This document shows positions 21,508 through 63,092 of a stretch of DNA of 64,000 nt, piece after piece; the first letter of the stretch is position 1; each line of letters opens with the position of its first letter. The DNA comes from a virus (lineage: Duplodnaviria; Heunggongvirae; Uroviricota; Caudoviricetes): IMG/VR virus record IMGVR_UViG_3300042870_001966. The stretch is one strand, 5' to 3'. Made by a program: the position numbers and the translations under genes. A model generated the notes under the pieces. That model saw nothing but the letters and a program-made list of their open reading frames with translations. It was not told the origin of the DNA and made no database searches.

Positions 21508-21588
21508 CGACCGGTGGCTCCCTTAATGGTTCGAGGCCGACCTCAAACATCGGTGATACGTCATACAGGGGGCGAAAGCGTATCAAAC

Positions 21589-21950: not shown

Positions 21951-22027
21951 CGAGATGTTGGGGAGTCCGGTTACCCCGCCTGCTTTGGGAGCAGGAGAAC
22001 TCGCAGGTTCGAATCCTGCCATCTCGA
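21951..22027 (+). tRNA. tRNA-Pro(TGG)
   Basis: Loop TTTGGGA; 7-nt variable region. Confidence 0.65.
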
Positions 22028-22135
22028 CAAAAGAACCTTAGTAGAGGCTGACTCCACCAGCTAGGACGTAACGTTCAAGCCTAGCTGAAAGCACGCGCTT
22101 GCGCTGAAATGGTGGTCGAGGTTCTTTTATTTTAT

Positions 22136-22210
22136 TGGGTGTTAGCTCAGCGGTAGAGCTCTCGACTGTTAATCGAGTGGTCCCAGGTTCGAATCCTGGA
22201 CACCCAGCCA
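22136..22210 (+). tRNA. tRNA-Asn(GTT)
   Basis: Loop CTGTTAA; CCA encoded. Confidence 0.8.
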
Positions 22211-22348
22211 AGGTTGATTAGGGAATGATTGTGTCAATAGTTCGAGAGTGAATGCTGACTGACATAATCGGAGTTTGCAGGCATTCACCAGAGTAATGCT
22301 AATCGTAAAATGAGATGTCCACTGAACCATCTTCTCATTTCCTTACCT

Positions 22349-22435
22349 GCCGTAGCGCTGAAGTTGGAGAGTCAGGACAGACTGTAAATCTGTTGTCGTA
22401 AGGCTGAGTAGGTTCGAATCCTACCTGCGGCACCA
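22349..22435 (+). tRNA. tRNA-Tyr(GTA), type II
   Basis: AGACTGTAAATCTG anticodon arm identical to E. coli Tyr; CCA encoded. Confidence 0.75.
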
Positions 22436-22486
22436 AGTAGTTTTGAGGTGGGCGAATTCTACTCTAAAAAAATAATCCCTCCACCA

Positions 22487-22560
22487 GGACCTTTAGCTCA
22501 GTTGGTTAGAGCAGCGCACTCATAATGCGAAGGTCTCAGGTTCGAGCCCTGAATGGTCCA
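22487..22560 (+). tRNA. tRNA-Met or Ile2 (CAT)
   Basis: Loop CTCATAA; one acceptor mismatch. Confidence 0.65.
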
Positions 22561-22644
22561 CAAATTTTTTAGATTTTTTATCATCCGATTAAACCTAAAT
22601 CGATTTTTAATAGTATAGTAATAGTGTATCTTAATTTAAAACAA

Positions 22645-34117: not shown

Positions 34118-35320
34118 ATGGAAAATCAAAACAGCGTATGTTACATTGGAAAAGTAACAGAAATCAAGGCAATCGAAGGAGCTGACAATATTGAGTTAGC
34201 GATCATCGGTGGATGGAATTGTATTACTAAAAAAGGACTACACAAGGCGGACGAATTTGTTATCATTGCAACAACTGATGCAGTTATTCCGGAAGAGTTA
34301 TCCGAAAAATTGGGAGTAACCGGTTACCTGCGTAAGGGCAATCGAGTTAGAACAGTTAAGTTGAGAGGAGTTTACAGTGAGTGTCTAATCATTCCGCTTA
34401 ATGTGCTTGAAGGTTCAGAAGAAATGAAGATCGGAGTTAGTAAACAGCCTTGGGGCGATCAATTACAGTTGGGCCCTTATGACGATGCACTCGTTATTGA
34501 AGAAGGAGTTGACGTTAGTGAGATGCTTGGAATTTTCAAGTACGAACCGCCAGTTAGACAGGTCCAACTTGCTTCAGGTAAAAAGGTTCGTTATCAAGAC
34601 AATCCAAACTTTCATGTCTACTACAAGTTTCCTAACTTGAAAAATGTTAGTGGAATGTTTACTGAAGAGGATATTGTGCAAATCACGCGTAAGATCCACG
34701 GTACGAATGCACGATACGGTATAGTTAAGAAGAATCGCTTGTCCTTCATGGATAGGATTAAAAAATTCTTTGGATTCGCCGGAGAGCTCTTTGAGTACGA
34801 GTACGTTTATGGATCTCATAATGTCGAGAAGGGTTCTGATTCTCAAGGGTTCTATTCAACTGATGTCTGGAGAACAATTGCCGAGAAGTACGATATCAAG
34901 AACAGGTTGCTTACCTTAGCAAAAACTAAAAATAGGATTGGTGAACTTGGAGCTGGTATTGTAATTTACGGAGAAATTTACGGTGCAGGTATTCAAAAGA
35001 ATTACGAGTACGGTCTGACTGATATTGAATTCGTTGGATTCGATGCCACAGTAAACGGCAAATACGAGTCCACTATTTACACTGAATTCCTTTTCAAAGA
35101 AGCGCTAGAGTTACCTCACGTTGGAGTCCTATACACAGGACCGTGGTCACAAGAGACACAAGACCAGTTCGTCTTTGGTAATATGATCAAAGGAACTAAG
35201 GTGCCGCATGAAGGCATTGTTATTAAGCACATAAGCGGTGAGCGTAATCGAGTAGCAAAGGTAATTAATCCAGACTATTTGATTTACGGAGAAAAGCACG
35301 ATATTGGAGACTCACATTAA
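34118..35320 (+). CDS. ATP-dependent RNA ligase (Rnl2-like motifs) fused to N-terminal tRNA-binding OB (Myf/Trbp111-like) domain
   Basis: N-terminal GKV.EI..IEGADNIELA..GG tRNA_bind pattern. Ligase motifs KIHGTN (I), EGIVIK (IV), AKVIN (V). Confidence 0.65.
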   Translation: MENQNSVCYIGKVTEIKAIEGADNIELAIIGGWNCITKKGLHKADEFVIIATTDAVIPEELSEKLGVTGYLRKGNRVRTVKLRGVYSECLIIPLNVLEGSEEMKIGVSKQPWGDQLQLGPYDDALVIEEGVDVSEMLGIFKYEPPVRQVQLASGKKVRYQDNPNFHVYYKFPNLKNVSGMFTEEDIVQITRKIHGTNARYGIVKKNRLSFMDRIKKFFGFAGELFEYEYVYGSHNVEKGSDSQGFYSTDVWRTIAEKYDIKNRLLTLAKTKNRIGELGAGIVIYGEIYGAGIQKNYEYGLTDIEFVGFDATVNGKYESTIYTEFLFKEALELPHVGVLYTGPWSQETQDQFVFGNMIKGTKVPHEGIVIKHISGERNRVAKVINPDYLIYGEKHDIGDSH

Positions 35321-36464: not shown

Positions 36465-36545
36465 GCCCTCTTGGCGGAATTGGTAGACGCGCTAGACTTA
36501 GGATCTAGTCTTAGGGTGAGAGTTCGAGTCTCTCAGAGGGTACCA
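36465..36545 (+). tRNA. tRNA-Leu(TAG)
   Basis: Class-II D-arm TGGCGGAATTGGTAGACGC. Loop CTTAGGA. Short (9 nt) variable region. CCA encoded. Confidence 0.6.
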
Positions 36546-36697
36546 AACACATATCACAAATAAAAATGTGAGTTACTTTGAAATAGCCAATTATAAGCCA
36601 ACATAAAGCCGTTGGGTACAGAAGGAGTAATTAACCGGAGTATAGGCAACAATTGTGACACTGTAACAAATACCCATTTGAGTGGTATGTTTTAAAT

Positions 36698-36818
36698 AGT
36701 CAGGTGGCGGAATTGGTAGACGCTATGTGGTGCGGAACTCGCTTCGTTCACCACTCCCTTAGCGGGGAAAACAAAGGTAAGAGATGTGACCATGCAGGTT
36801 CGAATCCTGTCCTGACTA
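36698..36818 (+). ncRNA. 121-nt tRNA-like RNA (Leu-like acceptor/D/T arms with about 45-nt extra internal sequence)
   Basis: Acceptor AGTCAGG/CCTGACT. D-arm identical to the tRNA-Leu at 36465. T-arm GCAGG-TTCGAAT-CCTGT. Internal hairpins GTGGT..ACCAC and GAAC-TCGCTTC-GTTC. Confidence 0.4.
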
Positions 36819-36984
36819 CGATTGTTAACACGCTTGCTTCGTGTTGAAATTGTCAGATAACGTGCAACGATAGTTTAAAGACTGTAGAAAAAGAAACACT
36901 GACTGGAAGGATTCTTATGGACGCATAAGAAGTAAAAGTCCACAACTAAACCTACTTACAATTGGCAAGGTAAATTGAATTAAG

Positions 36985-37012
36985 GCGATCGATCTAACGG
37001 TCGCCTTTTTTA
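36985..37012 (+). terminator. rho-independent terminator
   Basis: GGCGAtcgatctaacggTCGCC followed by TTTTTT. Confidence 0.55.
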
Positions 37013-37025
37013 GTATATTAGACTT

Positions 37026-37769
37026 ATGAAAGTACTACACAAACAGGAGAATTCAAAGCTTATTAATTATGAGTTGTATGAAATCGCTCCAAAGATTTAT
37101 GCAGTCTTGGCAAAGGACTCTTTTGAGAGAGCGATGCTCTTTCTTAGAGCACAAGAGTATTATGAATCCCCTTTTCCTGAATTTAGAGGACAGGACTTTG
37201 ATATTTTTGTCTACATGAATCGTTACCGAAAAGAGAGATCAGCTAACTATTTTAGTTACACAGCGGACTGGAGCGGATACAATGTTCCTAGCGAATCTCT
37301 TGAAGCCTGTATGCGAGGAGTTTATCAGTATCATACTGACATAACTTCGTACGATCATGAAATGACAGAGGTTGTGTCTATTATTAGACAGTACCAGAAA
37401 AAAGGTAAGTTCTATCTACTTGGAGTCGATTCATTGGAATCAAGAGTAATGGATCATGAATTTGCTCACGGGCTATTCTATACAAATAAGGCGTATAAAA
37501 CCGAGATGATGGAGTTAGTATTATCTTTAAAGCGAGATCTATACGAACAGCTTGAAAGCTACTTGATTCAAATCGGCTACACAAGCCACGTAATCGCGGA
37601 TGAGATTCAGGCTTATATGGCGACAGGATTAACGGCAACGATGGCAAAGACCAGAGGCTCAGTTACGGCAGCTAAGAAATTCGAAAAGATATTTAAGAAA
37701 TACAAGAAACAATATGGCAAACACGATAATATCAATAACCCTAAACGACAAGCAGCAGAAAAAGTTTGA
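37026..37769 (+). CDS. hypothetical protein with HExxH motif
   Basis: HEFAH. Confidence 0.45.
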   Translation: MKVLHKQENSKLINYELYEIAPKIYAVLAKDSFERAMLFLRAQEYYESPFPEFRGQDFDIFVYMNRYRKERSANYFSYTADWSGYNVPSESLEACMRGVYQYHTDITSYDHEMTEVVSIIRQYQKKGKFYLLGVDSLESRVMDHEFAHGLFYTNKAYKTEMMELVLSLKRDLYEQLESYLIQIGYTSHVIADEIQAYMATGLTATMAKTRGSVTAAKKFEKIFKKYKKQYGKHDNINNPKRQAAEKV

Positions 37770-37903
37770 TGCTTGGGGTAAGCACCTAAAAGCCCTGTTT
37801 GGCGAATGGGGAAACTTAACCTGGACAGTATCATCATGTGGAATCGGAGACACAATCACTGTCACTAGCAGCAATGCACCAAAACATCCATTAGACTTAA
37901 CTG

Positions 37904-38212
37904 ATGTCGGTAGCTGGTAAGGAACGTTGCGACTGCGGAAAGATCGCAACTTGGTGTTACGGGCCAGGTTATAGAGATGGAGGTAATCCAAATTCATGTG
38001 ATGATTGTGTCTCTCGTGGATGTGATTGTAATCACAATTACGTTAGTGTAAACTCGTATCATCCACCACTAGACTCACCTAATTTACCGGAAGGCGAAGA
38101 GGGAGTTGACTGGAAGTGGATTAAAGCTGATAAAGTTTGGTGCTGGATTGATGAGCGCGGTAGAGAATATCCATGCTGTGAGTACGACTACATAATAGGA
38201 TCAGAAGATTAA
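37904..38212 (+). CDS. Cys-rich hypothetical protein
   Basis: Multiple CxC/CxxC pairs. Confidence 0.4.
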   Translation: MSVAGKERCDCGKIATWCYGPGYRDGGNPNSCDDCVSRGCDCNHNYVSVNSYHPPLDSPNLPEGEEGVDWKWIKADKVWCWIDERGREYPCCEYDYIIGSED

Positions 38213-38223
38213 TTAAACGAAAT

Positions 38224-38604
38224 ATGAGAATAGCAGTAATTGCACACGATAATAAAAAGGCGGACATGGTGGCATTCATCATGAAGCGTCTTGATTTTTT
38301 TAAGCAGCACGAGGTTGTTGCAACTGGTACGACCGGTACTCACATTGAGCATGCAGGTCTTGAGGTCGACCGAATGAAGTCTGGACCGCAAGGCGGAGAC
38401 GCTCAGATCGCAGCAGAGTTAGTCAACGGTAAAATAGATGGAGTTATCTTCTTTATTGATCCATTAACTGCACATCCGCATGAAGTTGACGTTCAAATGT
38501 TACTTAGATTGTGTAATGTGTATAATATTCCTATTGCAACGAACTATTCGACTGCAAGCTTGTTGATACAGGCAGTTTCTTCTAAAAATAACAACGATAA
38601 ATGA
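38224..38604 (+). CDS. mgsA: methylglyoxal synthase
   Basis: IALVAHD..K, ATGTTG, SGPxGGDxQ, IDxxIFFxDPL..PHxxDV..LLRL...IPxATN align along the whole MgsA length. Confidence 0.8.
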   Translation: MRIAVIAHDNKKADMVAFIMKRLDFFKQHEVVATGTTGTHIEHAGLEVDRMKSGPQGGDAQIAAELVNGKIDGVIFFIDPLTAHPHEVDVQMLLRLCNVYNIPIATNYSTASLLIQAVSSKNNNDK

Positions 38605-40337
38605 GTAAACTCACACGGGACTTTGAAGAGTTCATAAAAGGTAAACATCCGAGCATTGAGTTTAGACCTCAGCAAAAAGAAGCGATAATCGATATTATTT
38701 CAGCATACGAAGAAGACCATAATGGAATTTATCTACTTGATGCGCCGACTGGATCAGGCAAGTCAGTTATCGCAATGTTATTTGCTGATTTTCTTGCATT
38801 TAAGGGAAATCGCGGCTATATCTTAGCATCTGACCTCTCTCTTCATGAACAATACGTCAAAGATTTTAAAAAGTTGCAGGTATGGAATTGGGGTAATATA
38901 AAAGGTGTTGATAACTACCGATGCGTTGTGAACGACGAGAAATTTTCAGTCGGTGAGTGCAAGAGTAAAGGAACCTCTTATGAAAAGGCTGAATCTCTTC
39001 CGTGTTTCAAACAATGTGGCTACTTGACCTCAAGAAAAAAGGCAATCAAGTCGCCAGTCTCTCTGTTAACCTATCCATACGCCCTGATTCAACGAAATTA
39101 CGTTGAGCAAAATCAGCAAGGCAACGGTAAGGGCTCCCCATTTCCACAAAGAGATTTTGTAGTATGCGATGAGGCCCATAAGCTACTTGATATTGTACAG
39201 AGCCATTTCAGTCCAATCGTTTCGCATGAAATTGTTAAAAAGACTGAGAGCTTAATTGAAAGCACCGGCGATATTGGCCAAAAGATACCACAAGTGGACA
39301 CTGAACGATTAGCAAAAGTGATTGATATGATTTACGAACAGGAGGATCATGGCAACTTGCTTAAATTACTTAAGGAGGTTACTAGACTCTTGAGCATTGC
39401 AGTTCAGGCAACCTCTTCGCTTAGAGAAAATGCATCAATTGAATTTTTAGAGGGCAGCATTCCATCCGAATGGTTGGCTGTCTTTGGCATGGCGGACTGG
39501 TGTAAGGACGTTCACTGTAAACTAGAAGACTATTGTAAAATCATTGAACAAGTAGGTCTTGAGAAGCTCGTAAAGAATCCTGGCGAAAAGTCAATCACAT
39601 TCAACTGTATCGATGAGTACTACCTATTACAGAAACACTTCTTTACGAAATTTGGATTCAAGTTACTGATGACTGCTACAATGGGCAGTCCCAGCGATTT
39701 CATGAGAAATCACGGAATCAAGAAGGCTAAGTACTTTAAGATTGAAAGTCATTTCAATTGGGAGAAGTCACCTATCATTTTCTATCCAGGTAAAAAAATG
39801 TCAACCAGATTCCTACAAGAGAATCTACAATGGGCAATTGATTCAGTAACCAGAATAGTCAGGGAGAACTCTGAGCACTCCGGAATCATTCATTCAGGTT
39901 CTTATGAATTGAATACTAAGATCTGGACAGGTCTTCCCAAAGATGTTAAGAAACGCATTGTTCTCTATAAAGGATCTGAAGAGAAAGAGATCGCGCTAAA
40001 GATAATGAAGAAGAAGAAGGCAATGGTACTGATGGGTCCATCTATTCTTGAAGGCTTGAACATGGTTGACGACCAGAGTAGATTCCAAATCTTCTTAAAG
40101 GTTCCGTACCCTCATCTCGGCGACAAGTACGTTGCTGCTAAATTGGAATACAGCCAGCAATGGTACAATTGGAAGACCTCAATCGCTGTCCTGCAAGGAG
40201 TAGGCCGCTCAATACGTACACCTGAGGATTGGGCGGTGACTCATCTACTTGATGGATGTTTCGCAGACCTAATGAAATCCGCAGGTGATCAATTCCCACC
40301 TGACTTCAAAGCGAGATTGCGAATAGAGTATAAATAA
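38601..40337 (+). CDS. Rad3/DinG-like DNA helicase with Fe-S cluster
   Basis: Walker A APTGSGKS, DEAH-like VCDEAH, four-Cys cluster. Confidence 0.7.
   Translation: MSKLTRDFEEFIKGKHPSIEFRPQQKEAIIDIISAYEEDHNGIYLLDAPTGSGKSVIAMLFADFLAFKGNRGYILASDLSLHEQYVKDFKKLQVWNWGNIKGVDNYRCVVNDEKFSVGECKSKGTSYEKAESLPCFKQCGYLTSRKKAIKSPVSLLTYPYALIQRNYVEQNQQGNGKGSPFPQRDFVVCDEAHKLLDIVQSHFSPIVSHEIVKKTESLIESTGDIGQKIPQVDTERLAKVIDMIYEQEDHGNLLKLLKEVTRLLSIAVQATSSLRENASIEFLEGSIPSEWLAVFGMADWCKDVHCKLEDYCKIIEQVGLEKLVKNPGEKSITFNCIDEYYLLQKHFFTKFGFKLLMTATMGSPSDFMRNHGIKKAKYFKIESHFNWEKSPIIFYPGKKMSTRFLQENLQWAIDSVTRIVRENSEHSGIIHSGSYELNTKIWTGLPKDVKKRIVLYKGSEEKEIALKIMKKKKAMVLMGPSILEGLNMVDDQSRFQIFLKVPYPHLGDKYVAAKLEYSQQWYNWKTSIAVLQGVGRSIRTPEDWAVTHLLDGCFADLMKSAGDQFPPDFKARLRIEYK
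40329..40336 (+). promoter_or_regulatory. T4 late-promoter-like TATAAATA
   Basis: Exact TATAAATA 5 nt upstream of the ATG at 40342. Confidence 0.45.
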
Positions 40338-40341
40338 CTCT

Positions 40342-40926
40342 ATGAAACACCTTAAACTATACGAAGAATTTGATCTTGACAGATTCCTAGACAATCCAGA
40401 AAAGGAATTAGCTGATGACAATTCACCAGAGATCAATGTAGGAAATTACGTTGACTCATACCGAGGTAAAGGCCAAGTGCTTGATATCGATAGCGATTTT
40501 GCAAAAGTTGAATTACATAACTCAAAAGGCAATATTGTTAAAGTTCCAGTTTTTGCTCTAACTAAAATATCTCACGAAGACCTAACTTCAGCCAAGGTCG
40601 GAGATTCTCAAGCTGAACTTGCGGAGCTAGTGAGTCAGGCCAGACAGTACAATGATTACCTTGACTCAACTGAAGATTATGATAACGAAGATGAAGAGGA
40701 TGGAGTTTACTCAGCAAGTCAGGTAAATTTCGATACCCTACTAGCATATATTCAAGATACAACGATCGATGTTATCTCTATTAAAAATAACGATAGTGCA
40801 TACGATACCTATTCAGAATATCACGAACTGATTAATTTAGTCGGCTCAATCGCTGGAGCAATTCAGAGAGCAAGACCGGACTTAATGGATGAAGTTGATG
40901 CAGCACTAGACAATTTCCCAGGATAA
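40342..40926 (+). CDS. acidic hypothetical protein
   Basis: TATAAATA lies immediately upstream. Weak CTS-like N-terminus LKLYEEFD. Confidence 0.5.
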   Translation: MKHLKLYEEFDLDRFLDNPEKELADDNSPEINVGNYVDSYRGKGQVLDIDSDFAKVELHNSKGNIVKVPVFALTKISHEDLTSAKVGDSQAELAELVSQARQYNDYLDSTEDYDNEDEEDGVYSASQVNFDTLLAYIQDTTIDVISIKNNDSAYDTYSEYHELINLVGSIAGAIQRARPDLMDEVDAALDNFPG

Positions 40927-42257
40927 TGAGACTTAAACGATTTACACAATTCGTTAATGAAAATACTGATGATGCTGAAGAATTAGCAGCATTAGGTTTT
41001 AATTCAAAGATTGACACGGATGAAATTCAAGGATTAATGGCCGAATACAACCCAGAGGAGAAGACCGACACGACATTAGGTTTCGATTTGGGATTTGATA
41101 TGACAGCTGATGATTTAGGACTTGATCCAGAAAGAGCAGAGGCTGCTGAATTAGATAGCGTGTTCCTTGTTCAGTACTATGTTGATTTCGACTTTGAGAC
41201 AATGAAATCTAAAGTACAAGTGGCAGTCTTAAATTCTGGGATTGATTTTGACGGTGCAGGTAATGCGTATGAAGTTGATTTTAAACTGGATTCAGAAAAT
41301 CACGATTCTCAAGGAATCGCTGATGAGTTAACTCAGATTTTGCAGCGAATTGAATACGAAGGCATGTTTGTAGACATGGCAGTCGATATAGTAAATGACA
41401 TAATCGATAGACGTCTTGGAGAAGTATCAGAAAAGAAGAAACTTAAATGGCATGATTCTGATGAGCCTAACACAAAAGGAAAATTCATAATTGAGAACTT
41501 ATCTGATGAAGAAGCTGCAGAACTAAGAGCAATGGGTTTTGGTGGAGTTGACACTGATGCAATCGCAGAACTAGTCAATGGAGCAACTGCAGAAGATCAA
41601 ATCGTTATTGTTTCAGGCCAGTTCAATCAATCTATAGATGATTACGGAATAGATTCATCCGAATATCCGGATATAGAAAGAGACGTATGGACTGATTTTG
41701 AAGTCAGAATAAACTTTATCGATGAAACTGTTAAGTCGTCAGTTAGTGTCGCACAAAAAGATATCGGACTTTACGAAGATGCTGAACTTGAAGACTATGA
41801 ATGGTCTGACCTATTCCAAAATGGAGATCCAGTTTCAATGAAGTCTAATGAGATAGCTGAAGATATTGAACTCTTTATGAGTGCCGTAACTGGTTTCGAA
41901 GACTCGCTTGGAATGTACGACAAAATTCAAGATCTTTTAAATAAGGCAATTGAGGAACAGTATCACAGATGGGATGACGAAGAAGATGATGAAGCTGATG
42001 AAGATGAAATTTCAGAAAAGAAAAAACTTAAATGGCACGATTCTGATGCACCTGATGCAAATGGAAAATTCAGAGACCTTGGAGTTAATAAATTAGCGGA
42101 TTGGTTAATCAGAACAAGAGGTGGTAACATGCAAAAGATTACTGGATCGCTAAATCAACAAATTAATTTTAACAAGCGAAAAAATCCAAGTTATGCCAAG
42201 AAAATGGAGTCGACTCGGGAAGCAGTTAAAAGAAAATTAGCAAAAAGAAAAGAATAA
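40926..42257 (+). CDS. acidic protein with CTS-like N-terminus (MRLKRFTQFVNE) and internal duplication
   Basis: EKKKLKWHDSD(E/A)P..GKF occurs twice. Confidence 0.55.
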   Translation: MRLKRFTQFVNENTDDAEELAALGFNSKIDTDEIQGLMAEYNPEEKTDTTLGFDLGFDMTADDLGLDPERAEAAELDSVFLVQYYVDFDFETMKSKVQVAVLNSGIDFDGAGNAYEVDFKLDSENHDSQGIADELTQILQRIEYEGMFVDMAVDIVNDIIDRRLGEVSEKKKLKWHDSDEPNTKGKFIIENLSDEEAAELRAMGFGGVDTDAIAELVNGATAEDQIVIVSGQFNQSIDDYGIDSSEYPDIERDVWTDFEVRINFIDETVKSSVSVAQKDIGLYEDAELEDYEWSDLFQNGDPVSMKSNEIAEDIELFMSAVTGFEDSLGMYDKIQDLLNKAIEEQYHRWDDEEDDEADEDEISEKKKLKWHDSDAPDANGKFRDLGVNKLADWLIRTRGGNMQKITGSLNQQINFNKRKNPSYAKKMESTREAVKRKLAKRKE

Positions 42258-42393
42258 ATAAAACCAATTAGAAATATTGTAGTATATTATTAACATGAAA
42301 ACATTATCCTTACATTCACTTTGTTTACGTTCGTTGAGATTAAGTCTCGATGTGTCTAGGCCGTGATGTAAGATAAGAAAACTTCTACTGAAA

Positions 42394-42427
42394 AGGCTTA
42401 GACTAACGTTTAAGCCTTTTTTGTTTT
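42394..42427 (+). terminator. rho-independent terminator preceding tRNA cluster
   Basis: GGCTTAgactaacgttTAAGCC followed by a T-run. Confidence 0.6.
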
Positions 42428-42428
42428 T

Positions 42429-42498
42429 GGTCAGTTTGGTCGTGGAGGCCGTCAGGTCTGCAAAATCTGAGGAGTTGGTTCGATTCCAACATTGACCT
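42429..42498 (+). tRNA. tRNA-Cys(GCA)
   Basis: Loop CTGCAAA. Confidence 0.65.
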
Positions 42499-42506
42499 CA
42501 AAAACT

Positions 42507-42590
42507 GGAAGAGTAATTCAGCTGGCGCTGGACCTAGTCTTGAAAACTAGTGGTACCTTCGGGTATGGGGATCGATACCTCACTCTTCCG
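42507..42590 (+). tRNA. tRNA-Ser(TGA)-like, type II, non-canonical T-loop ATCGATA
   Basis: 8-bp acceptor. Anticodon arm CTAGT-CTTGAAA-ACTAG. Variable-arm hairpin with TTCG loop. Confidence 0.5.
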
Positions 42591-42605
42591 CTCGTTCTTT
42601 TACAT

Positions 42606-42683
42606 GGTAGACGTAGCTCAGTTGGTTAGAGCGCCTGATTGTGGTTCAGGAGGTCGTCGGTTCGATCCCGATCGTTTACCCCA
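42606..42683 (+). tRNA. tRNA-His(GTG) with encoded G-1
   Basis: Loop TTGTGGT. G-1 pairs with C73. CCA encoded. Confidence 0.75.
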
Positions 42684-42686
42684 ACT

Positions 42687-42762
42687 GCCTCTGTGGGTAA
42701 ACTGGTAAAGCCGCTTGACTTAGGATCAAGAGATTTTGTGGGTTCGAATCCCACCAGAGGTA
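42687..42762 (+). tRNA. tRNA-Leu(TAG)-like, type-I length (7-nt variable region)
   Basis: Anticodon arm CTTGA-CTTAGGA-TCAAG; T-arm GTGGG-TTCGAAT-CCCAC. Confidence 0.55.
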
Positions 42763-42769
42763 CAAAAAT

Positions 42770-42850
42770 GCTCCCGTGGTGAAACTGGTAAACACGCTCG
42801 GCTTAAGATCGAGTGCGCAATGCTTGTGGGTTCGAGTCCCACCGGGAGTA
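42770..42850 (+). tRNA. tRNA-Leu(TAA), type II
   Basis: Loop CTTAAGA; 12-nt variable region. Confidence 0.7.
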
Positions 42851-42855
42851 CTAAT

Positions 42856-42943
42856 GGAGAGTGAAGCAACAAGGTGTTGTCGCCGCCTGCTAAGCGAGCG
42901 GTTCCCGAAAGGGAATGGGGATCGAGACCTCCACTCTCCGCCA
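42856..42943 (+). tRNA. tRNA-Ser(GCT)-like, type II, non-canonical T-loop ATCGAGA
   Basis: Acceptor GGAGAGT/ACTCTCC plus CCA. Bulged anticodon stem, loop CTGCTAA. Variable-arm hairpin TTCCC-GAAA-GGGAA. Confidence 0.5.
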
Positions 42944-42944
42944 T

Positions 42945-43018
42945 AGTCCAGTAGCTCAGTGGAATAGAGCAACCGCCTTCTAAGCGGTAGGTCGCAGGTT
43001 CGAGTCCTGCCTGGATTA
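42945..43018 (+). tRNA. tRNA-Arg(TCT)
   Basis: Loop CTTCTAA. Confidence 0.75.
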
Positions 43019-43042
43019 CAAATTATTTAGTACAATATAGCT

Positions 43043-43273
43043 ATGGAAGAAATAACAAACGCAGAAAGAGAATTCATGTTCTATAAGATTGGAACAGCTG
43101 GATCGTTTCACACAGCCTTGATTCAGACAATTATGAAGGCTGATATTCGTAATCAGGCTAAGCTTGCACTAGGTTTTCCCGAAGATGTTCAAGTGGTTCA
43201 ACGTTTTCAAAACGAAAGTGGCTACTGGGAAGGTCTGCAAGAGCGCTGGAAAGCTGCACATAACCGAAACTAA
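43043..43273 (+). CDS. hypothetical protein
   Basis: ORF between tRNAs. Confidence 0.4.
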   Translation: MEEITNAEREFMFYKIGTAGSFHTALIQTIMKADIRNQAKLALGFPEDVQVVQRFQNESGYWEGLQERWKAAHNRN

Positions 43274-43282
43274 TTAGTACCT

Positions 43283-43355
43283 GCCCCGGTAGTTCAATGG
43301 ATCAGAACACACGGCTACGGACCGTGAGATGGGGGTTCGAATCCCTCCTGGGGTA
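43283..43355 (+). tRNA. tRNA-Arg(ACG)
   Basis: Loop CTACGGA. Confidence 0.7.
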
Positions 43356-43370
43356 CTTAACTTAATCAAC

Positions 43371-50748: not shown

Positions 50749-52731
50749 ATGGCAAAACAAAACAACAAAACCGGAAAAACTCCAATGCTCGATTCGTTCG
50801 GGAAAGATCTTACTCAATTAGCTATTGAGGGAAAGTTAGATCCAGTCGTTGGTAGGGAAAAAGAAATAAAGCGTTGCAGTCAAATACTCGCACGTAGAAA
50901 AAAGAACAATCCTCTCTTGATTGGAGAGCCTGGAGTTGGTAAAACTGCCATCGTCGAAGGTCTTGCAAAAATGATCATTGACAAAACTTGTCCACGAGTT
51001 CTATTCGATAAAAAGATCGTTACTCTTGAGCTTGCGAATTTAGTAGCAGGTACAAAGTACAGAGGTCAATTCGAAGAGCGAATGGAACAAATAATTGACG
51101 AAGTTCAACAAAATCCGCATGTTATCCTATTCATAGATGAGATTCATACCCTAATTGGAGCTGGCTCAGCTAGCGGATCATTGGATGCGGCGAATATCCT
51201 GAAACCTGCACTTTCTCGTGGACAGATTCAGTGTATTGGTGCAACAACGCTTGACGAATTTAGAGGATCTATTGAAAAAGATGGTGCCCTGAATCGTAGA
51301 TTTCAGCAAGTGATGGTAGATCCATCTACGCCAGAACAAGCTCGCCAGATCATCCAGAATATACGCCAGAAGTACGAAGACCATCACTCAGTAAGATACA
51401 CTGACGAAGCACTTGATGCTTGCGTTACCTACAGTGATCGATACTTACAGGACAGATTTCTACCGGATAAAGCGATTGACTTAATGGACGAAGCTGGCTC
51501 AGCAGTTCACATAAACGGAGTAGTTGTACCTGAAGAAATTAAGTCACTTGAGGTAAAATTAGTTGAGGTAAGCGAACGCAAACAAAAGGCAGTAGATGGA
51601 CAACAGTACGAAGCGGCTGCTAAATTGAGAGACGAAGCACTTAAGGTAATGTCAGAAATTGACGAAGAAAAATCAAAATGGGAAGAATCATTAAAGGTGA
51701 ATCGCCTAAATGTTTCAGAAGAAGATATCGCATCAGTAGTTGCCGCAATTACTGGAATTCCAATTACTAGACTCAAAGGTTCTGAGCTTGAAAGACTTGC
51801 TAATATGGCAAGCTGGTTAAAGGATCGAGTAATCGGTCAGCCTGAAGCAGTGGTCAAATTAACAAAAGCAATCCAGCGATCAAGAGCAGGGCTTAAGTCT
51901 AAAAATAGACCAATTGGGACTTTCATGTTCCTCGGCCCAACTGGTGTTGGTAAAACCGAATTGGCAAAGCAGCTTGCAAAATTCATGTTCGACTCAGAGG
52001 ACTCGTTAATCAGAATAGACATGACTGAGTTTGGAGAAAAATTTACGTCGACTAAATTAATAGGAGCTCCTCCAGGATACGTTGGATACGATGAAGGTGG
52101 TCAGCTTACTGAGAGAGTTAAGCGTAAACCCTATTCAGTAGTTCTATTGGACGAGGTCGAAAAAGCTCATCCTGATATTTTTCACACTCTACTTCAAGTA
52201 TTGGATGAAGGCCATTTAACTGATGGGCTTGGTCGTAAAATAGATTTTAAAAATACTGTGATTATTATGACTTCTAATTTGGGAGTTAAGGAATTGCAAG
52301 ATTTTGGAGGAGGTATTGGATTCTCGTCAGCTGTTGATCAATTTGAAAAGCAGAAAGAGATCGCAGCAAGCGTTCTAAAGAAGGCTGTTAGTAAGCAGTT
52401 TGCACCAGAGTTTATCAATCGACTAGATGATATTATTATCTTCGAGACTCTTAAGAAAGAAGATATTACTAAGATCGTTGAAATTGAACTTTTAGACCTG
52501 TATGCTAGAGTTAAGGAAAATGGATACACTGTTGAGTTGACTAAACAGGCAAAAGAATTCTTAATTGAAAATGGCTATGACCCTAAATTTGGAGCTCGTC
52601 CACTAAAGAGAGTTATTCAAAATCACGTAGAAGATCTTATAGCAGAGGCCTTTATCGACGGAAAGATTAAAGATGGTGATAAATTGGTGATTACTCATAA
52701 AGCCAAAGAAGAAAACTTATCATTTAAGTAA
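50749..52731 (+). CDS. ClpA/ClpC-like AAA+ ATPase (two nucleotide-binding domains, no N-domain)
   Basis: GEPGVGKTAIVEGLA (D1) and GPTGVGKTELAKQLA (D2) Walker A motifs. Confidence 0.8.
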   Translation: MAKQNNKTGKTPMLDSFGKDLTQLAIEGKLDPVVGREKEIKRCSQILARRKKNNPLLIGEPGVGKTAIVEGLAKMIIDKTCPRVLFDKKIVTLELANLVAGTKYRGQFEERMEQIIDEVQQNPHVILFIDEIHTLIGAGSASGSLDAANILKPALSRGQIQCIGATTLDEFRGSIEKDGALNRRFQQVMVDPSTPEQARQIIQNIRQKYEDHHSVRYTDEALDACVTYSDRYLQDRFLPDKAIDLMDEAGSAVHINGVVVPEEIKSLEVKLVEVSERKQKAVDGQQYEAAAKLRDEALKVMSEIDEEKSKWEESLKVNRLNVSEEDIASVVAAITGIPITRLKGSELERLANMASWLKDRVIGQPEAVVKLTKAIQRSRAGLKSKNRPIGTFMFLGPTGVGKTELAKQLAKFMFDSEDSLIRIDMTEFGEKFTSTKLIGAPPGYVGYDEGGQLTERVKRKPYSVVLLDEVEKAHPDIFHTLLQVLDEGHLTDGLGRKIDFKNTVIIMTSNLGVKELQDFGGGIGFSSAVDQFEKQKEIAASVLKKAVSKQFAPEFINRLDDIIIFETLKKEDITKIVEIELLDLYARVKENGYTVELTKQAKEFLIENGYDPKFGARPLKRVIQNHVEDLIAEAFIDGKIKDGDKLVITHKAKEENLSFK

Positions 52732-55218: not shown

Positions 55219-55608
55219 ATGGCAACACAACCAGTAGGAAAAGACCTATACTTACGAGCACCAGGCGATCCAAACTACCAAGAAGGTATTTATGAATCAA
55301 ATGACTCAATTGAAAATGCTCTTCAACAAATTAGAATGACGCTACTTACTAGAGCAGGTGAAGTTCTTGGGGAAGATATTGGATTCAATGCCGAAAAGTA
55401 TCTTTTTGAATTTGAGCAATCAGACATTAGCGCTATGGAAAAGGAGGCAAACGATCAAATTAATGAATATGTTTTATTCAGTCGACCTTACTCAATTGCA
55501 GCTAATGCATTTAAAATGGACGATATATCTGATCCATATAAAGTAGGATTAGGCTTGGACATTAAGATAGACGGACAGTCTGCGTTTGCTACAATGTTTG
55601 ACCTTTAA
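55219..55608 (+). CDS. hypothetical protein
   Basis: ORF only. Confidence 0.45.
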   Translation: MATQPVGKDLYLRAPGDPNYQEGIYESNDSIENALQQIRMTLLTRAGEVLGEDIGFNAEKYLFEFEQSDISAMEKEANDQINEYVLFSRPYSIAANAFKMDDISDPYKVGLGLDIKIDGQSAFATMFDL

Positions 55609-56512
55609 GCCAATCTTCTAATTTAATTAACGGGTTCCAATCAAGATACGATTTAGCGGCAGTGACGTCAGCTAAACTAATCTTCGGCTCTAATCTAAAA
55701 CCTACATTTACCGTTTTTCCGCCAACCATTTCAGCGATTTGATTTACGCTGATATTTTCTCCACTTCCTATATTAATAATTCGGTGATACTTATCTGAAG
55801 CGTTAGCGAGCGCATTGTATGCTGGTGAGTGTAATGCAGCAATATTTGCTCTAACTACATCTGATACGTGAATAAAATCTCTTCGCTGTTCTCCGTCATT
55901 TGTGATTGGTAAAGGTTTGCCAGCCTTAGCTTTTTCTAAAAATATTGGAATGACTGAGCGGTATGAACTGTCAGGATTTGAATTTGGACCGTAAACATTG
56001 AAATATCTAAGGCACGTCGTTTTTATTCTGTAAATTGAAGAATATAATTTGCAATAATTTTCCCCAATCTGTTTAGTTAACGCATAGGTTGAAATTGGAT
56101 CAAGCGGTACAGATTCATTAGTTGGAAATAACTCAGTGTTTCCGTATACTGCACTAGTTGAGCTAAACACTAATTCCGATACACCAGCGATTCGACACGC
56201 TTCAAGCACGTTTGAGGTTCCTATTACATTTACTAAATTATATAGAGTAGGTGATTCTAATGACTCCTGGACAGAAGTTAATGCGGCTAAATGGAATACG
56301 CATTCTGAACCTTTAATGATGGCGGCGATCTTCTTGGGATCCCCTGTAATATCGTAGACTCTTAGGTCAATCGCTAAGTTTTTAATGTTGCTTTTCTTAC
56401 CGGTCGATAGATTATCGATTACGGTTACTCGGAACCCTTGCTCTACGAGTGATTTAACAAGGTGAGATCCGATAAATCCGGCCCCACCTATTACTGTTAC
56501 TTTACGATTCAT
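55589..56512 (-). CDS. NAD-dependent epimerase/dehydratase (GalE-like)
   Basis: GGAGFIGSHL Rossmann motif. YALTK catalytic YxxxK. Confidence 0.8.
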   Translation of the reverse strand: MNRKVTVIGGAGFIGSHLVKSLVEQGFRVTVIDNLSTGKKSNIKNLAIDLRVYDITGDPKKIAAIIKGSECVFHLAALTSVQESLESPTLYNLVNVIGTSNVLEACRIAGVSELVFSSTSAVYGNTELFPTNESVPLDPISTYALTKQIGENYCKLYSSIYRIKTTCLRYFNVYGPNSNPDSSYRSVIPIFLEKAKAGKPLPITNDGEQRRDFIHVSDVVRANIAALHSPAYNALANASDKYHRIINIGSGENISVNQIAEMVGGKTVNVGFRLEPKISLADVTAAKSYLDWNPLIKLEDWLKGQTL

Positions 56513-58890: not shown

Positions 58891-59397
58891 TTATATTGAT
58901 TTGAACAGAAAGTTTTCGGTTATTATCCCAAATTTTAAACCTCTTACTGAAGCGAACTCTTTAGCTGCTTCAAATTTTGCCTGATTTACAATGTATTGCT
59001 TGGCTGCATATACATAACTTGCAGTTTGCTTGTCAGTCATTCTTGCTGGGGCAGTAGGTGGTTTGGTATACTTGTCAGGCTTTACCTCAATTAACCAAGA
59101 CTGCTCCTTTCCTGAGCTATCTTTGGTTACGATATAAAAATCAACATAATATGTGTGTCCGCGTTTATCAAGAGGAGAATAGTAAGGAATTCCTACTGGT
59201 TCGCTTGAGTATTTAATAACAGTCGGGCTGTGATCACACCATTTTAGGAATTTGAATTCCCAGCTTGATCTGAATATTATTTGCGAAGTATCGCCAACGT
59301 ACTTCTCAGGGAACGCTGGTTTAAAGTATCCCTGACGGATTGTTCCAGCTCGCGGTTTTAAGAAAGTCTTGATGCTCTTCTGCTCTTTCGGTTTCAT
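58891..59397 (-). CDS. PD-(D/E)xK nuclease-like protein
   Basis: YVDFYI...LIEVKP pattern. Confidence 0.4.
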   Translation of the reverse strand: MKPKEQKSIKTFLKPRAGTIRQGYFKPAFPEKYVGDTSQIIFRSSWEFKFLKWCDHSPTVIKYSSEPVGIPYYSPLDKRGHTYYVDFYIVTKDSSGKEQSWLIEVKPDKYTKPPTAPARMTDKQTASYVYAAKQYIVNQAKFEAAKEFASVRGLKFGIITENFLFKSI

Positions 59398-59405
59398 ATA
59401 GTTAT

Positions 59406-60530
59406 TTATAGGTACGCCATGTCAAACACGGAATCGCTAAAATAACTATTGATCCATTCATTAAAGCTTTCAATTGAAGTATTTGAATTTCTGTCATGCA
59501 TGTAACAGAAAAGGTCATTAATATCTTTGACTTTTTGTAGAGCCATCATATCTTCAGTAGAACTAAATTTTCTCTTTAGGTCACCGATTGCTTTATTCCA
59601 CAAAAACACAGAGTATCCTTGCTGGATAAAATTCATCATTTGAGTCTTGCCTGCCTTATCTCGGTCAAATATAACTTGAGTAGCACCCTTTGACCCTAGA
59701 TTAGAGAAAATACTTCTGGCTTTAGATGCACCAGAGGTTGCAATCGCGTTAGTTATGAACATTGAATCGAATTGACCCTCAGTCATTCTGATTGGCTTGC
59801 TGAAGTCAACGTTCAAGATATTGAAGTAGTTATTAAGAAAGTTCGCATCTTCCACCAGATCCTTCGAGAGTCCTATCTGAGAGAAGATATGAATAATATC
59901 GGAATATGACTTGATTATGTACTTACGTTCGGAATTTGGATCGAGACTTCTAATTGAGAATCCTAGTATTTTACCGGATCTTCTATCGAAATTAAAAATA
60001 TAGACTTTATTATCGGATGAATCAGTATAGAGACAATCTCCGAAATCTTCAATTAAGTTGATCGCTCGGCCCTTTATGTACTGATACGCTCTAGATTCTT
60101 CTGAAACCATATCAAGTCTCTTTAACGAGAACCTATTGATTACTTCAGTTATTGTAACAAGACTTGATGTATCGGATGTTAAGAATCTAATTAATTGATT
60201 CTCTGTCTTTTTGGGTTTTGCAACTGGTGAGTATTCTGTATCTAGGATAAAGCTTGGAAGCATGATTCCATGTTCCTTACTCATTCTGGCAACAAATTCT
60301 CCCATGGTCATATATGCCATACAACCATCATTAAAACATTTATAAGCCCCAGTATCTAAATAGAGGTTACCACGCTTCTTTGAAACCTTCTTGTCCGAGT
60401 CTCCGCAAATTGGACACGCGAAATTTAGCTTACGGCCAGTCTCTCCATCAATTTTTTGTTTCTCAGGAACATCGTGGAATCTCTTACGTAATAAGGTTTC
60501 AATGAATGCGGTTATTTCCTCAATTCTCAT
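59406..60530 (-). CDS. DNA primase (zinc-ribbon plus TOPRIM; gp61/DnaG-like)
   Basis: CPICGDS...C..C zinc ribbon. FDRDKAG DxD motif. Confidence 0.6.
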   Translation of the reverse strand: MRIEEITAFIETLLRKRFHDVPEKQKIDGETGRKLNFACPICGDSDKKVSKKRGNLYLDTGAYKCFNDGCMAYMTMGEFVARMSKEHGIMLPSFILDTEYSPVAKPKKTENQLIRFLTSDTSSLVTITEVINRFSLKRLDMVSEESRAYQYIKGRAINLIEDFGDCLYTDSSDNKVYIFNFDRRSGKILGFSIRSLDPNSERKYIIKSYSDIIHIFSQIGLSKDLVEDANFLNNYFNILNVDFSKPIRMTEGQFDSMFITNAIATSGASKARSIFSNLGSKGATQVIFDRDKAGKTQMMNFIQQGYSVFLWNKAIGDLKRKFSSTEDMMALQKVKDINDLFCYMHDRNSNTSIESFNEWINSYFSDSVFDMAYL

Positions 60531-62145
60531 CAGTTATAGTTACCTTCTTTACAGGTTTTGGTTTAGTTGCGTTTTTGTAAGCTTTGTCAAGATCGTATCC
60601 CATTTTGTAGTAATCCTTTCCGGTTTTAACAGCTTTTTCGTACTTGTCAGTTTGCAACCATGAACCACCAGACGGAGTATTGATTATTTCGCTCCAGCCA
60701 TTCGATCTTAAGTATTCTTGCATCACTTCAACTGGAATTGCAAATGGATCTTCTACTTCAATTCCTAATTTCTTTGCTACTCGATCGCGATACTTAGTAA
60801 GTTCGTGTTTTGGAACGATTACTGTATTTAGGCCAAATTTAGAAATTGCTGAAATGTAAACTGGGAATAAATTCGCAGGTACCGGCTTGTCTGGATTACC
60901 AATGTATTCTTGGCAGCTTTCCGGAATTTCAGAATAGGCTAGAGTTTTTGAGTCAACTGCATACAGTGGGAAAGTTTCTTCGTTTGTGAATTCTTTGCTA
61001 CGGCTTCTTGATTTAACAAGTTCAACTTTACGAACAAGGGCTGAAGTTAATTCCGGATAACCCATTGCAACTAATAATTTATTAATTGGCTCAATGATTA
61101 ATCGGAAGAACTGTTGATCTCTATCCATAGGCACTGCGAATTCTTCTGGATAAGAGCCTGGAGCGTACGCAAAAATATCAAATTCATACTCATTCGGCGA
61201 AGCATAGTAAAATTTAATCTTTGAACCGCTTCGTATCAATGCATACTTTTGATTTTTGGTTTTCTTTATCACGTGATTGTGATATGCAGCAGCTCTACCG
61301 TAAATCGGCATTCCTTTCTCCATTACTAATGGATTTAGGCTCTTTAGGTAATCTTCGTAAACTCGAACTGAGAAGTTAAAAGCAATCTCATCGACCGTTA
61401 GCGAATTACACTCGTCTTTTAGAGCCTGTAATTTCGGAATCAAGTCTTCTTCAAGATCCAAGTTATACCCGATTCCTAAAAGATATGAATACAGCTTTTG
61501 TAAGTGCTGTCTTGCCCAAATTGGATAGGAAGCTTGAATTGCTTCAAGACCCTTAATGATTAATGATTCTTTATCAAGTAGTCGTTCGTGCTTATTATCT
61601 TTATATGATACGCTTAAGATGTATTTCTTCTTAGCGAGCCAGATTCCTGAACTAGAAAGATTTTCAAGCTCAAAATTTTGGCGATTGTCTGTGTTGAAAT
61701 GAACTGCGTATTTCTCAAAAGCTTGTTCAAAATAATCCTTTAATCGGTTTCGGTTAATTGCCAAACAGAACTCAAGAGACTCTTTATTATCTAAGTCTAA
61801 TCCTTCTACTGACTGAATTGCATAATCAAAACAGACATACACAGAGTCAGTATCTGTGTAAATTGCAGCTTCTTTTTCAATTTGAGAAACTTTTTTGTCT
61901 GAAATTCCTAAAATTTCATGAAGTTCAGTATCTAGGTGCCACTTGTGCTGAAAGTAGTGATTTACTGCCCGGATTGAGAATTTAATTAAATCTTGACCTT
62001 GTAGAGTAATAGATTTAGCTATTTCGTTATTATGAAAATAGAAATATCGGTTACCGAAGGCACCATAGAATGAGTTAATTAAGATTTTAATTGCATTCTG
62101 CTTTAAATCTAGTGATTTAATTTGCTGTTCTAACTGTTTTGACAT
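60520..62145 (-). CDS. family-B DNA polymerase, C-terminal fragment (motifs B, C and thumb only)
   Basis: KILINSFYGAFG (motif B) 20 aa after Met. YTDTDSV (motif C). No exonuclease or motif A. Confidence 0.8.
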   Translation of the reverse strand: MSKQLEQQIKSLDLKQNAIKILINSFYGAFGNRYFYFHNNEIAKSITLQGQDLIKFSIRAVNHYFQHKWHLDTELHEILGISDKKVSQIEKEAAIYTDTDSVYVCFDYAIQSVEGLDLDNKESLEFCLAINRNRLKDYFEQAFEKYAVHFNTDNRQNFELENLSSSGIWLAKKKYILSVSYKDNKHERLLDKESLIIKGLEAIQASYPIWARQHLQKLYSYLLGIGYNLDLEEDLIPKLQALKDECNSLTVDEIAFNFSVRVYEDYLKSLNPLVMEKGMPIYGRAAAYHNHVIKKTKNQKYALIRSGSKIKFYYASPNEYEFDIFAYAPGSYPEEFAVPMDRDQQFFRLIIEPINKLLVAMGYPELTSALVRKVELVKSRSRSKEFTNEETFPLYAVDSKTLAYSEIPESCQEYIGNPDKPVPANLFPVYISAISKFGLNTVIVPKHELTKYRDRVAKKLGIEVEDPFAIPVEVMQEYLRSNGWSEIINTPSGGSWLQTDKYEKAVKTGKDYYKMGYDLDKAYKNATKPKPVKKVTITDEN

Positions 62146-62216
62146 ATACGAGTATTGTACTTGTGAATATTCATTTGGGTTTAATTTACCAAATAAATAA
62201 CTAAAAAGTTGAAAAC

Positions 62217-62819
62217 ATGGTAAACACTGATCGCTCTGTAATTAATAGAGCTTATCCATTTTTAAGCAATTTTCCATTTGATAAAGACTTTGATATTCAA
62301 ATATCAACTTCTCCAGTCGCTGCTGTGATGTTCGATGACGATTTTGAAACAAGCAGATCATCAACTCCGTATGTTATCAATTTTAGACACACCGGATCTC
62401 CAATCAACGCAAGTATCTCAATTGTAAAGGATGAACTTATTTGGATCGGTGAAATTGCTGAATCCATCACAAAACTTGACAGGATAGCTAAGCGAATTGA
62501 CCGAGGTATTAAAACCAAGGATCTTTTAGTAAAACGCGACATGTCTTTAGAAGCGGATGAATGGATGACTCTTGTTTCAGATCGCAAGAGCTCTCTTAGC
62601 CAGGAAACGTTTAACGAAGTGCTGGCAGGTCTAGTAGGAAATAGGTCAGTTAACCAAACTGTGACACTAATAAATAATTTGAATAAGCTTTACACTAAAA
62701 CTGGTCTGGTTAAATTATCAAAGGCAGAATGTGACGTGATTTTCACGTTTCTTCATTTTAGACTGATTTATGCAAAGCTAATACTTGGCATTGTAATTGC
62801 CTCAAAAATATCAATCTAA
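62217..62819 (+). CDS. hypothetical protein
   Basis: Divergent from polymerase fragment. Confidence 0.45.
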   Translation: MVNTDRSVINRAYPFLSNFPFDKDFDIQISTSPVAAVMFDDDFETSRSSTPYVINFRHTGSPINASISIVKDELIWIGEIAESITKLDRIAKRIDRGIKTKDLLVKRDMSLEADEWMTLVSDRKSSLSQETFNEVLAGLVGNRSVNQTVTLINNLNKLYTKTGLVKLSKAECDVIFTFLHFRLIYAKLILGIVIASKISI

Positions 62820-63092
62820 ATGGAACAATTGGATTCATTCATTGAGTATCTGTATACGGTAGAAGAGAACTTAACTCAACTAACGACAGATCAAGTAAAA
62901 AAGCTACAGTCAATTCAAACTAAAGTAAGTGAATTAGTTAATAAAATTCAAACGCCTCAACCGGCCCAGCCTCAAAGCCAACCCCAAGTTCAAGTACGAT
63001 CAATGGAATTACAGTTAGCTGAAAATAAGGTTCAAAGCTTCTCAAACTACATGGAGTTAAAAGAAACAACTAAAGCAAAGAATGCTAGGTAA
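62820..63092 (+). CDS. hypothetical protein
   Basis: ORF only. Confidence 0.4.
   Translation: MEQLDSFIEYLYTVEENLTQLTTDQVKKLQSIQTKVSELVNKIQTPQPAQPQSQPQVQVRSMELQLAENKVQSFSNYMELKETTKAKNAR

Follow-up and report, generated by a model that had tools for sequence, protein, structure and literature searches.

The stretch of DNA analysed here, in the following referred to as the window, comprises 64,000 nucleotides of the IMG/VR virus record IMGVR_UViG_3300042870_001966 (Caudoviricetes), and close to its right end it carries an open reading frame (ORF) which corresponds to the C-terminal part of a family B DNA polymerase of the T4 gp43 type (Table 1). An earlier reading of the sequence (the original prediction) had described this ORF as a free-standing polymerase fragment lacking the exonuclease domain and palm motif A and lying next to a divergent, unrelated upstream gene, and these observations were all borne out by our analysis. 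The ORF starts with a methionine, presents the motif B lysine at residue 20 and continues through motif C and the thumb, while Pfam, alignments and six-frame searches confirmed that the exonuclease domain and motif A are absent from it; the upstream neighbour is encoded on the opposite strand and has no Pfam or PHROG match. Neither the 3'-5' exonuclease domain (Exo I-III) nor motif A was detected elsewhere in the window using Pfam, tblastn and regular expressions. As the reading frame is open for just 33 codons upstream of the ATG (stop to stop), no hidden upstream continuation exists.

Several independent comparisons define which part of the polymerase is present. The match to the Pfam family DNA_pol_B (PF00136; E=1.2e-16) is limited to positions 145-450 of the 453-position profile, the full-length gp43 of cyanophage S-CAM22 used as tblastn query aligns to the ORF with its residues 483-819 (33% identity, E=2e-40), and positions 500-838 of the 856 positions of phrog_262, representing the T4 gp43 type, are matched with E=4e-62. 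Residues 2-363 furthermore correspond to positions 25-368 of phrog_1918 (E=1e-63), a PHROGs family of 382 positions which consists of C-terminal halves (C-halves) only. Comparison with PDB sequences by phmmer placed residue 15 at T4 gp43 residue 552 and residue 19 at RB69 residue 559, so that motif B of the ORF aligns with K560-G568 of T4 and RB69, K20 being the equivalent of RB69 K560. On the structural level, an AlphaFold2 model built on 48 homologues (mean predicted local distance difference test, pLDDT, of 79.7) was matched by Foldseek to RB69/T4 gp43 over about 365 columns (E~1e-12), including the thumb. Model confidence is low at residues 1-47 (pLDDT 35-52) vs. 75-95 over most of the remainder, and this N-terminal segment is predicted to require a partner subunit for folding.

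Table 1. Coordinates of the polymerase locus in the window and of the two polymerase halves in related huge phages.
Feature	Location	Strand	Remarks
Coding sequence of a finger-tip-split family B DNA polymerase (T4 gp43 type), probable C-terminal subunit	60520..62145	-	ATG start, 541 aa
New N-terminus, residues 1-47: second long finger helix (= RB69 helix P) and motif B region	62005..62145	-	
Motif B KILINSFYG, residues 20-28	62062..62088	-	sequence coordinates
Motif C YTDTDS, residues 96-101, catalytic aspartates	61843..61860	-	sequence coordinates
KKKY (KKRY-type primer-terminus motif), residues 172-175	61621..61632	-	sequence coordinates
C-terminal extension, residues 378-541 (164 aa): two small alpha/beta modules	60523..61014	-	
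DNA primase gene, 374 aa	59406..60530	-	phrog_47, E=5e-30
Head-closure (connector) family protein	58891-59397	-	phrog_218, E=2e-50; also Pfam Tn7_TnsA-like_N match
Divergent intergenic region upstream of the C-half, 71 bp	62146..62216	.	no coding capacity for the missing piece, an intron or an intein
Divergent 200-aa ORF, not polymerase-related, upstream boundary of the C-half unit	62217..62819	+	
LR756504	N-half 256 kb; C-half 538 kb	N-half +; C-half -	
Lak-A2	N-half 123 kb; C-half 346 kb	N-half -; C-half +	
LR745206	N-half 233 kb; C-half 131 kb		
LR756502	N-half 254 kb; C-half 121 kb		

Free-standing C-halves of this kind are widespread. A search covering 5.8 billion proteins gave more than 120 homologues with 54-98% identity and mostly 471-562 aa in length. 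Among the best 120, which were examined, none features an exonuclease domain, those matched by Pfam carry only PF00136, and the motif B lysine is found at residue 19-24 in 114; the length outliers in this set are three truncated entries (302-478 aa) and one intein-bearing protein of 719 aa. In many independent assemblies from ENA, JGI, Logan and IMG/VR, the ORF begins in the same way (MSKQLEQQIK...) and has the same divergent gene upstream. In addition, an exhaustive HMMER scan of 1.84 billion cluster representatives (50% identity) yielded 2666 matches, and classification of the best 150 gave 108 free-standing C-halves, i.e., proteins starting with Met whose motif B lysine is among the first 15-52 residues, besides 12 full-length enzymes and 30 fragments; several representatives of 550-650 aa match in two separated stretches. 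The assumption of the original prediction that such a split arrangement is rare is contradicted by this count as well as by the existence of phrog_1918.

The sequence of the C-half points to strong purifying selection. Its ratio of non-synonymous to synonymous substitution rates (dN/dS) is 0.05-0.08 when compared with six relatives, and K20, N24, Y27, G28, D98, D100, K172, K173 and Y175 are invariant in an alignment of 48 homologues with identities down to 52%. Within motif C, all six residues (Y96, T97, D98, T99, D100 and S101) are invariant in the same set.

The N-terminal counterpart (N-half), which the original prediction had expected to be encoded elsewhere, was not detected in the window but was found on related contigs. 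Tblastn searches of the window with S-CAM22 gp43, with the N-half of Tenacibaculum phage PTm1 and with that of a close relative gave no match better than E=0.12, and regular expressions for motif A and Exo I had no match in its six frames. A weak match at 9396-9545 spans two ORFs and was discarded as noise; likewise, the large Pfam-less ORFs at 7780-9450 and 40926-42257 were rejected as candidates, having neither a PDB sequence match nor a tblastn match with the N-half queries. No N-half was present in any frame within 10 kb on either side of the C-half at 42 related IMG/VR loci or in the contigs L003-L005, including the closest relative contig (L003), which shares about 92-95% DNA identity with the window, and megablast of the window against the phage collection gave no near-identical phage genome. 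By portal protein, the window is related most closely, among database entries, to the huge phages LR756500-504 and LR745206, to the Prevotella Lak megaphages and to PTm1. The N-half was traced by probing the huge phages with the PTm1 N-half, building an N-half profile and searching IMG/VR with the N-half of a close relative.

In this way, eight IMG/VR contigs featuring a C-half 81-85% identical to that of the window were found to carry an N-half as well, located on the same strand 37.8-49.1 kb upstream, and in nine further pairs of N- and C-half clusters the longest contig is equally long for both halves. The N-half of one relative (L128, 2986-4359) is a complete ORF of 457 aa with its own stop, comprising Exo I (DIE), Exo II (GWNVIGFD), Exo III (YNIID) and motif A (DFASMYP) and matching PF03104 together with positions 16-143 of PF00136. 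Among the best 120 N-half homologues, the complete ones have 456-478 aa, their C-terminus lying 70-89 aa past motif A; a further ten are shorter (289-436 aa) and stem mostly from contigs below 2 kb. In LR756504, LR745206, LR756502 and Lak-A2, the two halves are 100-280 kb apart. Because the relatives place their N-half 38-49 kb upstream on the same strand, the N-half of this genome would be expected about 36-47 kb past the right end of the window, on the minus strand.

The two halves fit together at the tip of the fingers. On the PF00136 profile they abut, the N-half reaching position 143 and the C-half starting at position 145. The relative's N-half aligns to RB69 residues 85-489, with its residue 447 corresponding to RB69 residue 489 and its R442 and K446 being equivalent to RB69 R482 and K486, the residues contacting the deoxynucleoside triphosphate (dNTP). 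It ends 11 residues past the conserved finger lysine K446 at ...KKLEEQLNAK, i.e., at about RB69 residue 499, with the tail helix ..RVDTKNEMKKLEEQLNAK, and the C-half starts 19 residues ahead of the motif B lysine at about RB69 residue 541. This places the break between both long finger helices (RB69 residues ~490-545), and the finger tip is about 40 residues shorter than that of RB69. Judged from these alignments, it lies specifically at the finger tip, a site already described for T4-related phages (PMC3061061). The same position is used in PTm1 and LR756504, which share the ..LE.EL.. tail, and the Lak-A2 N-half ends at the same point.

Taken together, the ORF very probably encodes the gp43B-like C-terminal subunit of an obligately two-subunit T4-type replicative family B polymerase whose partner gene is located elsewhere. 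The C-half would contribute the second finger helix bearing motif B, the palm strands bearing motif C and KKKY, the thumb and an extension at its C-terminus which is specific to the clade, and the partner, equivalent to gp43A, would supply the N-terminal domain, the 3'-5' exonuclease, motif A and the first finger helix, in which the conserved Arg/Lys are located. Both polypeptides would then assemble non-covalently, involving neither protein nor RNA splicing: each chain would provide one of the two long, antiparallel finger helices that pair with each other, and the palm sheet would be completed by both chains, which would bring motif A of the N-half and motif C of the C-half into one active site. 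The low confidence of residues 1-47 in a model with mostly confident palm, thumb and extension is consistent with the need for a partner, and together with the complementary domains of the halves and the invariant catalytic residues it indirectly supports an association of the subunits. Physical assembly and activity of the halves are what we infer by analogy to gp43A/gp43B of phage 25 and to split Pfu polymerase, and two aspects weigh against the interpretation: heterodimer formation within this clade is argued from such analogies, and the N-half of this particular genome was not seen, as the window stops about 1.9 kb upstream of the C-half gene and a search for the exact protein gave no record, so that the presence of the N-half is deduced from relatives.

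Several other explanations need to be considered. An abrupt start just ahead of motif B could, in a single window, resemble a truncation, and the original prediction had named a contiguous full-length gene interrupted by a frameshift or mis-assembly at about 62146 as the case that would overturn the split; a chimeric join would have the same effect. The start is, however, conserved in more than 100 independently assembled homologues together with the divergent upstream gene, the upstream gap is a mere 71 bp, no N-half-like sequence occurs in any frame around the 42 related loci, and in the eight contigs a distant locus holds the N-half as a complete ORF ending in a stop of its own, leaving an artefact with virtually no probability. 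A joining of the halves by protein trans-splicing, as for Nanoarchaeum PolB, the PTm1 motif-C junction, phage MIJ3 or the PolB16 intein, could be suspected from the inteins and split inteins in the polB genes of relatives (PTm1 ORF-239/241 and the 719-aa homologue, at motif C), and the 550-650-aa representatives matching in two stretches could hold similar insertions. These inteins of relatives are located at motif C and not at the finger tip, though, and neither half contains a Pfam intein domain; the C-half has no HN-C/S/T junction, its first 19 residues align as finger helix, and the 11 aa following the finger lysine plus the 19 aa preceding the motif B lysine leave no room for intein blocks, which renders a split intein extremely improbable. 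An intron is excluded by the short length of the upstream gap.

A decaying remnant of a disrupted polymerase gene, with replication being carried out by another enzyme, also appears very unlikely. A further polymerase may in fact exist, since Iyer et al. described a split Pol III alpha-like enzyme in the group 2.2 jumbo phages, which include Lak-B8 and PTm1 (PMC7824862), but the low dN/dS, the catalytic motifs invariant down to 52% identity, the retention of both halves across the clade and the overlap with the primase gene in a conserved operon are at odds with decay. Alternatively, the C-half could act independently, e.g., as DNA-binding or primase-associated accessory factor using its extra C-terminal modules, and would then not re-form a canonical polymerase. 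The unique, confidently folded extension, the conserved overlap with the primase gene and the location of the halves in different operons would agree with such a role; nevertheless, the invariant K/N/Y of motif B, the motif C aspartates and KKKY make sense only if the active site is complete, the exactly abutting halves occur together, and the finger helix is predicted to lack stability without its partner, so we regard such a role as improbable. Among the three mechanisms raised by the original prediction, the two-subunit polymerase is therefore favoured and trans-splicing by a split intein is excluded for lack of space, while an origin by a homing endonuclease is plausible from relatives even though inspection of the junction gave no homing-endonuclease or intron relic in the window.

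As regards the genomic context, a leftward unit begins with the C-half gene, which is followed by the primase gene, a gp4-like head-completion gene and the gp20 portal gene. The ATG of the primase gene lies 11 nt before the end of the C-half coding sequence, and this overlap suggests that both genes are co-transcribed and probably translationally coupled. The pair is also kept in a 55%-identical relative (L004/L005, with a faint Toprim_2 match), and a divergent gene of about 200 aa is found at the same position in relatives. Matches to sigma-70-type promoter-like and terminator-like sequences in 59300-62900 were not above shuffled expectation, promoters of Bacteroidota and phages being outside the scan. 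The family of the head-completion gene, phrog_218, is what we take to be the T4 gp4-like family, and the TnsA-like match was accordingly rejected as relic of a homing endonuclease or transposase. An intact gene for an NAD-dependent epimerase/dehydratase (PF01370, E=3.5e-62; 55589-56512, minus strand) adjoins the portal gene, and in L003 this epimerase/dehydratase gene has lost about 620 bp, with only residues 18-93 left. The N-half of relatives, by comparison, is located between a MazG-like gene and genes for UvsX/RecA and a DnaB-type helicase.

Further genes of the window deserve mention. The Bacteroidota-specific Por_Secre_tail signal (type IX secretion sorting) at the C-terminus of a 640-aa protein with a cohesin domain (10960-12882, minus strand) points to the host phylum. 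The window contains 26 tRNA genes (16904-22561 and 36465-43356), of which 18 form a dense array at 19603-22561, accounting for a spike in GC content to 0.51 at 20-22 kb, and six a second cluster at 42429-43356. A sulfate permease (SulP) family protein (944-2086, plus strand; Pfam E=9e-40) represents an apparently unusual auxiliary gene, and a 660-aa ClpB/Hsp104-like double AAA+ ATPase with a ClpB D2-small domain (50749-52731, plus strand) is conserved in L003. Other genes encode a topoisomerase IV/gyrase A-like subunit (2067-3428), an SPFH/Band 7 protein (31292-32725), an RNA ligase with a PHA02142 OB domain (34118-35320) and a Rad3/XPD-like helicase (38601-40337).

A feature not noticed previously is the C-terminal extension, which is missing from T4-like gp43. 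Its first module (residues ~385-465) is present in all members of the clade, and the second (~466-530) is confined to the forms of about 540 aa, those of about 475 aa ending in an acidic tail instead. No fold match was found for the predicted, confidently folded structure. It is conceivable, albeit rather unlikely, that the finger-tip split is not a neutral scar but a fixed and exploited replisome feature of a very large uncultured lineage, ranging from phages of ~150 kb to the 540-kb Lak megaphages of the gut, with an obligate heterodimer as catalytic core expressed from separate operons (the C-half with primase; the N-half with MazG, UvsX and the DnaB-type helicase) and the C-terminal modules serving as a new docking domain for clamp, primase or helicase. 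If so, the separate operons would permit a regulated or stoichiometry-controlled assembly, and the split finger tip may relax nucleotide selection, e.g., towards modified dNTPs, as in split Pfu carrying a point mutation.

Relatives also give hints on how the split might have arisen. An ORF with DUF7487 repeats follows the N-half directly in LR756500 and after one intervening ORF in PTm1; in LR756500.1 (L053, 4416-6356), this 647-aa ORF contains three DUF7487 repeats (E=4e-55) along with a weak REase_MTES_1575 match and is thus a candidate homing endonuclease at the split site. No endonuclease remnant was found by Pfam and PHROGs at either junction in the clade. A 71%-identical C-half of 719 aa (P0028; L041, 1511-3640) harbours an intein (PF14890) at residues ~117-282, right after motif C, showing that mobile elements are still invading the polymerase gene within the clade. 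Because the break is homologous in PTm1, LR756504 and the Lak-A2 N-half end, the positions suggest one ancient split, which was probably caused by insertion of a homing endonuclease, and genome rearrangements after the split would then have moved the halves apart.

As naturally split family B polymerases demonstrate, the finger tip is a permissive seam in a highly conserved enzyme, and this seam has already been used to engineer polymerases accepting modified nucleotides. Here, it is used constitutively across a broad, mostly uncultured clade including the Lak megaphages and other huge phages, with free-standing C-halves outnumbering full-length enzymes in the nearest 150 sequence clusters. 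Annotation pipelines and polB phylogenies will wrongly score the polymerase of such genomes as truncated or missing if the two distant genes are not paired, and completeness and marker-gene tools should consequently expect two polymerase genes. By analogy to the known split enzymes, the clade could provide natural heterodimeric polymerases with a new C-terminal domain for studies on the assembly of split replicases and on a possible regulatory value of encoding them in different operons.

The closest described counterparts are the finger-tip-split gp43A/43B enzymes, which PMC3061061 and PMC2988022, summarizing Petrov et al. 2006 and 2010, report for five T4-related phages (Aeromonas phages 44RR2.8t, 25, 31 and 65 as well as phage 133) with gaps of 2 bp to 3 kb; gp43A and gp43B of phage 25 co-purify and are active (PMC2988022). 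As in the 44RR2.8t type, a T4-type polymerase is broken between the long finger helices into two intein-less ORFs with own stop and start, the N-half comprising exonuclease and motif A and the C-half motifs B and C plus the thumb, and in a direct alignment with 44RR2.8t 43/43B a single loop contains both breaks. In contrast to the 44RR2.8t cistrons, which are 49 nt apart, the halves are at least 10 kb apart here and 38-49 kb in the relatives, and belong to different operons; moreover, the finger tip between the conserved lysines has 11+19 residues vs. about 30+46 in 44RR, and the C-half bears the additional 164-aa extension. Since the 44RR type is closer in sequence to the unsplit enzymes of T4, RB69 and cyanophages, the split described here probably occurred independently of that in Aeromonas phages.

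In PTm1 (AP019524), a related Bacteroidota phage with a 30% identical portal protein, the finger-tip break is homologous and the N-half has a similar ..LE.EL.. tail. Its ORF-236 (497 aa) encodes exonuclease, motif A and the first finger helix, ORF-239, annotated in GenBank as "intein-containing split DNA polymerase precursor" (AP019524), spans motif B through motif C plus an N-intein, and ORF-241 contains the C-intein and the rest of the polymerase. Unlike the gene of the window, these pieces lie within 6.3 kb on one strand (L051, 15174-21501, corresponding to AP019524 165174-171501), two ORFs, one of them DUF7487 endonuclease-like, separate the N-half from ORF-239, and a second break, at motif C, is bridged by a split intein whose halves are separated by a VSR endonuclease gene, whereas the window gene has neither an intein nor a neighbouring endonuclease. 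The closest database relatives by portal and polymerase are the huge phages LR756504, LR745206 and LR756502 and the Prevotella Lak phages, in whose unannotated records free-standing halves likewise end and begin at the finger tip and are far apart. They differ in that the halves are on opposite strands over the much larger distances given above and the C-halves are shorter (408 aa in LR756504); some C-halves of this group match in two separated pieces, which suggests an insertion. A literature search of incomplete coverage gave no published account of a finger-tip split that is clade-wide, intein-less and distant, be it in Lak phages, huge phages or smaller phages related to them.

Outside this group, PolB of Methanothermobacter thermautotrophicus (Kelman et al. 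1999) is, as cited in PMC3061061, formed from two polypeptides which assemble without splicing and whose genes are 85 kb apart, yet it is archaeal and its break, in the palm, lies about 83 residues further towards the C-terminus than the finger-tip site; the break described here is N-terminal to motif B and not of this type. Split Pfu polymerase, engineered with a finger-tip break (467/468), regains full activity on reconstitution from fragments made separately, its C-fragment folds only with the N-fragment, and once a point mutation is added it shows broader use of nucleotide analogues (PMC3061061). It differs from the viral enzyme in being artificial, archaeal and bicistronic, but the folding dependence of its C-fragment parallels the low-confidence N-terminal helix in our C-half model. 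The intein-fractured polB genes of Nanoarchaeum (Neq Pol), phage MIJ3 and PolB16 OarG (PMC6892783, PMC10189870) likewise consist of two genes, their products, however, being covalently linked through split inteins inserted at or close to motif C, and RM378 represents a different polymerase split (PMC3061061). The finger-tip split is therefore not a new principle, as the mechanism has precedent and the solution on the protein level is already known from Aeromonas phages 25 and 44RR, Methanothermobacter and split Pfu; what is new is the genomic organisation, the extra domain and the unexpectedly high prevalence.

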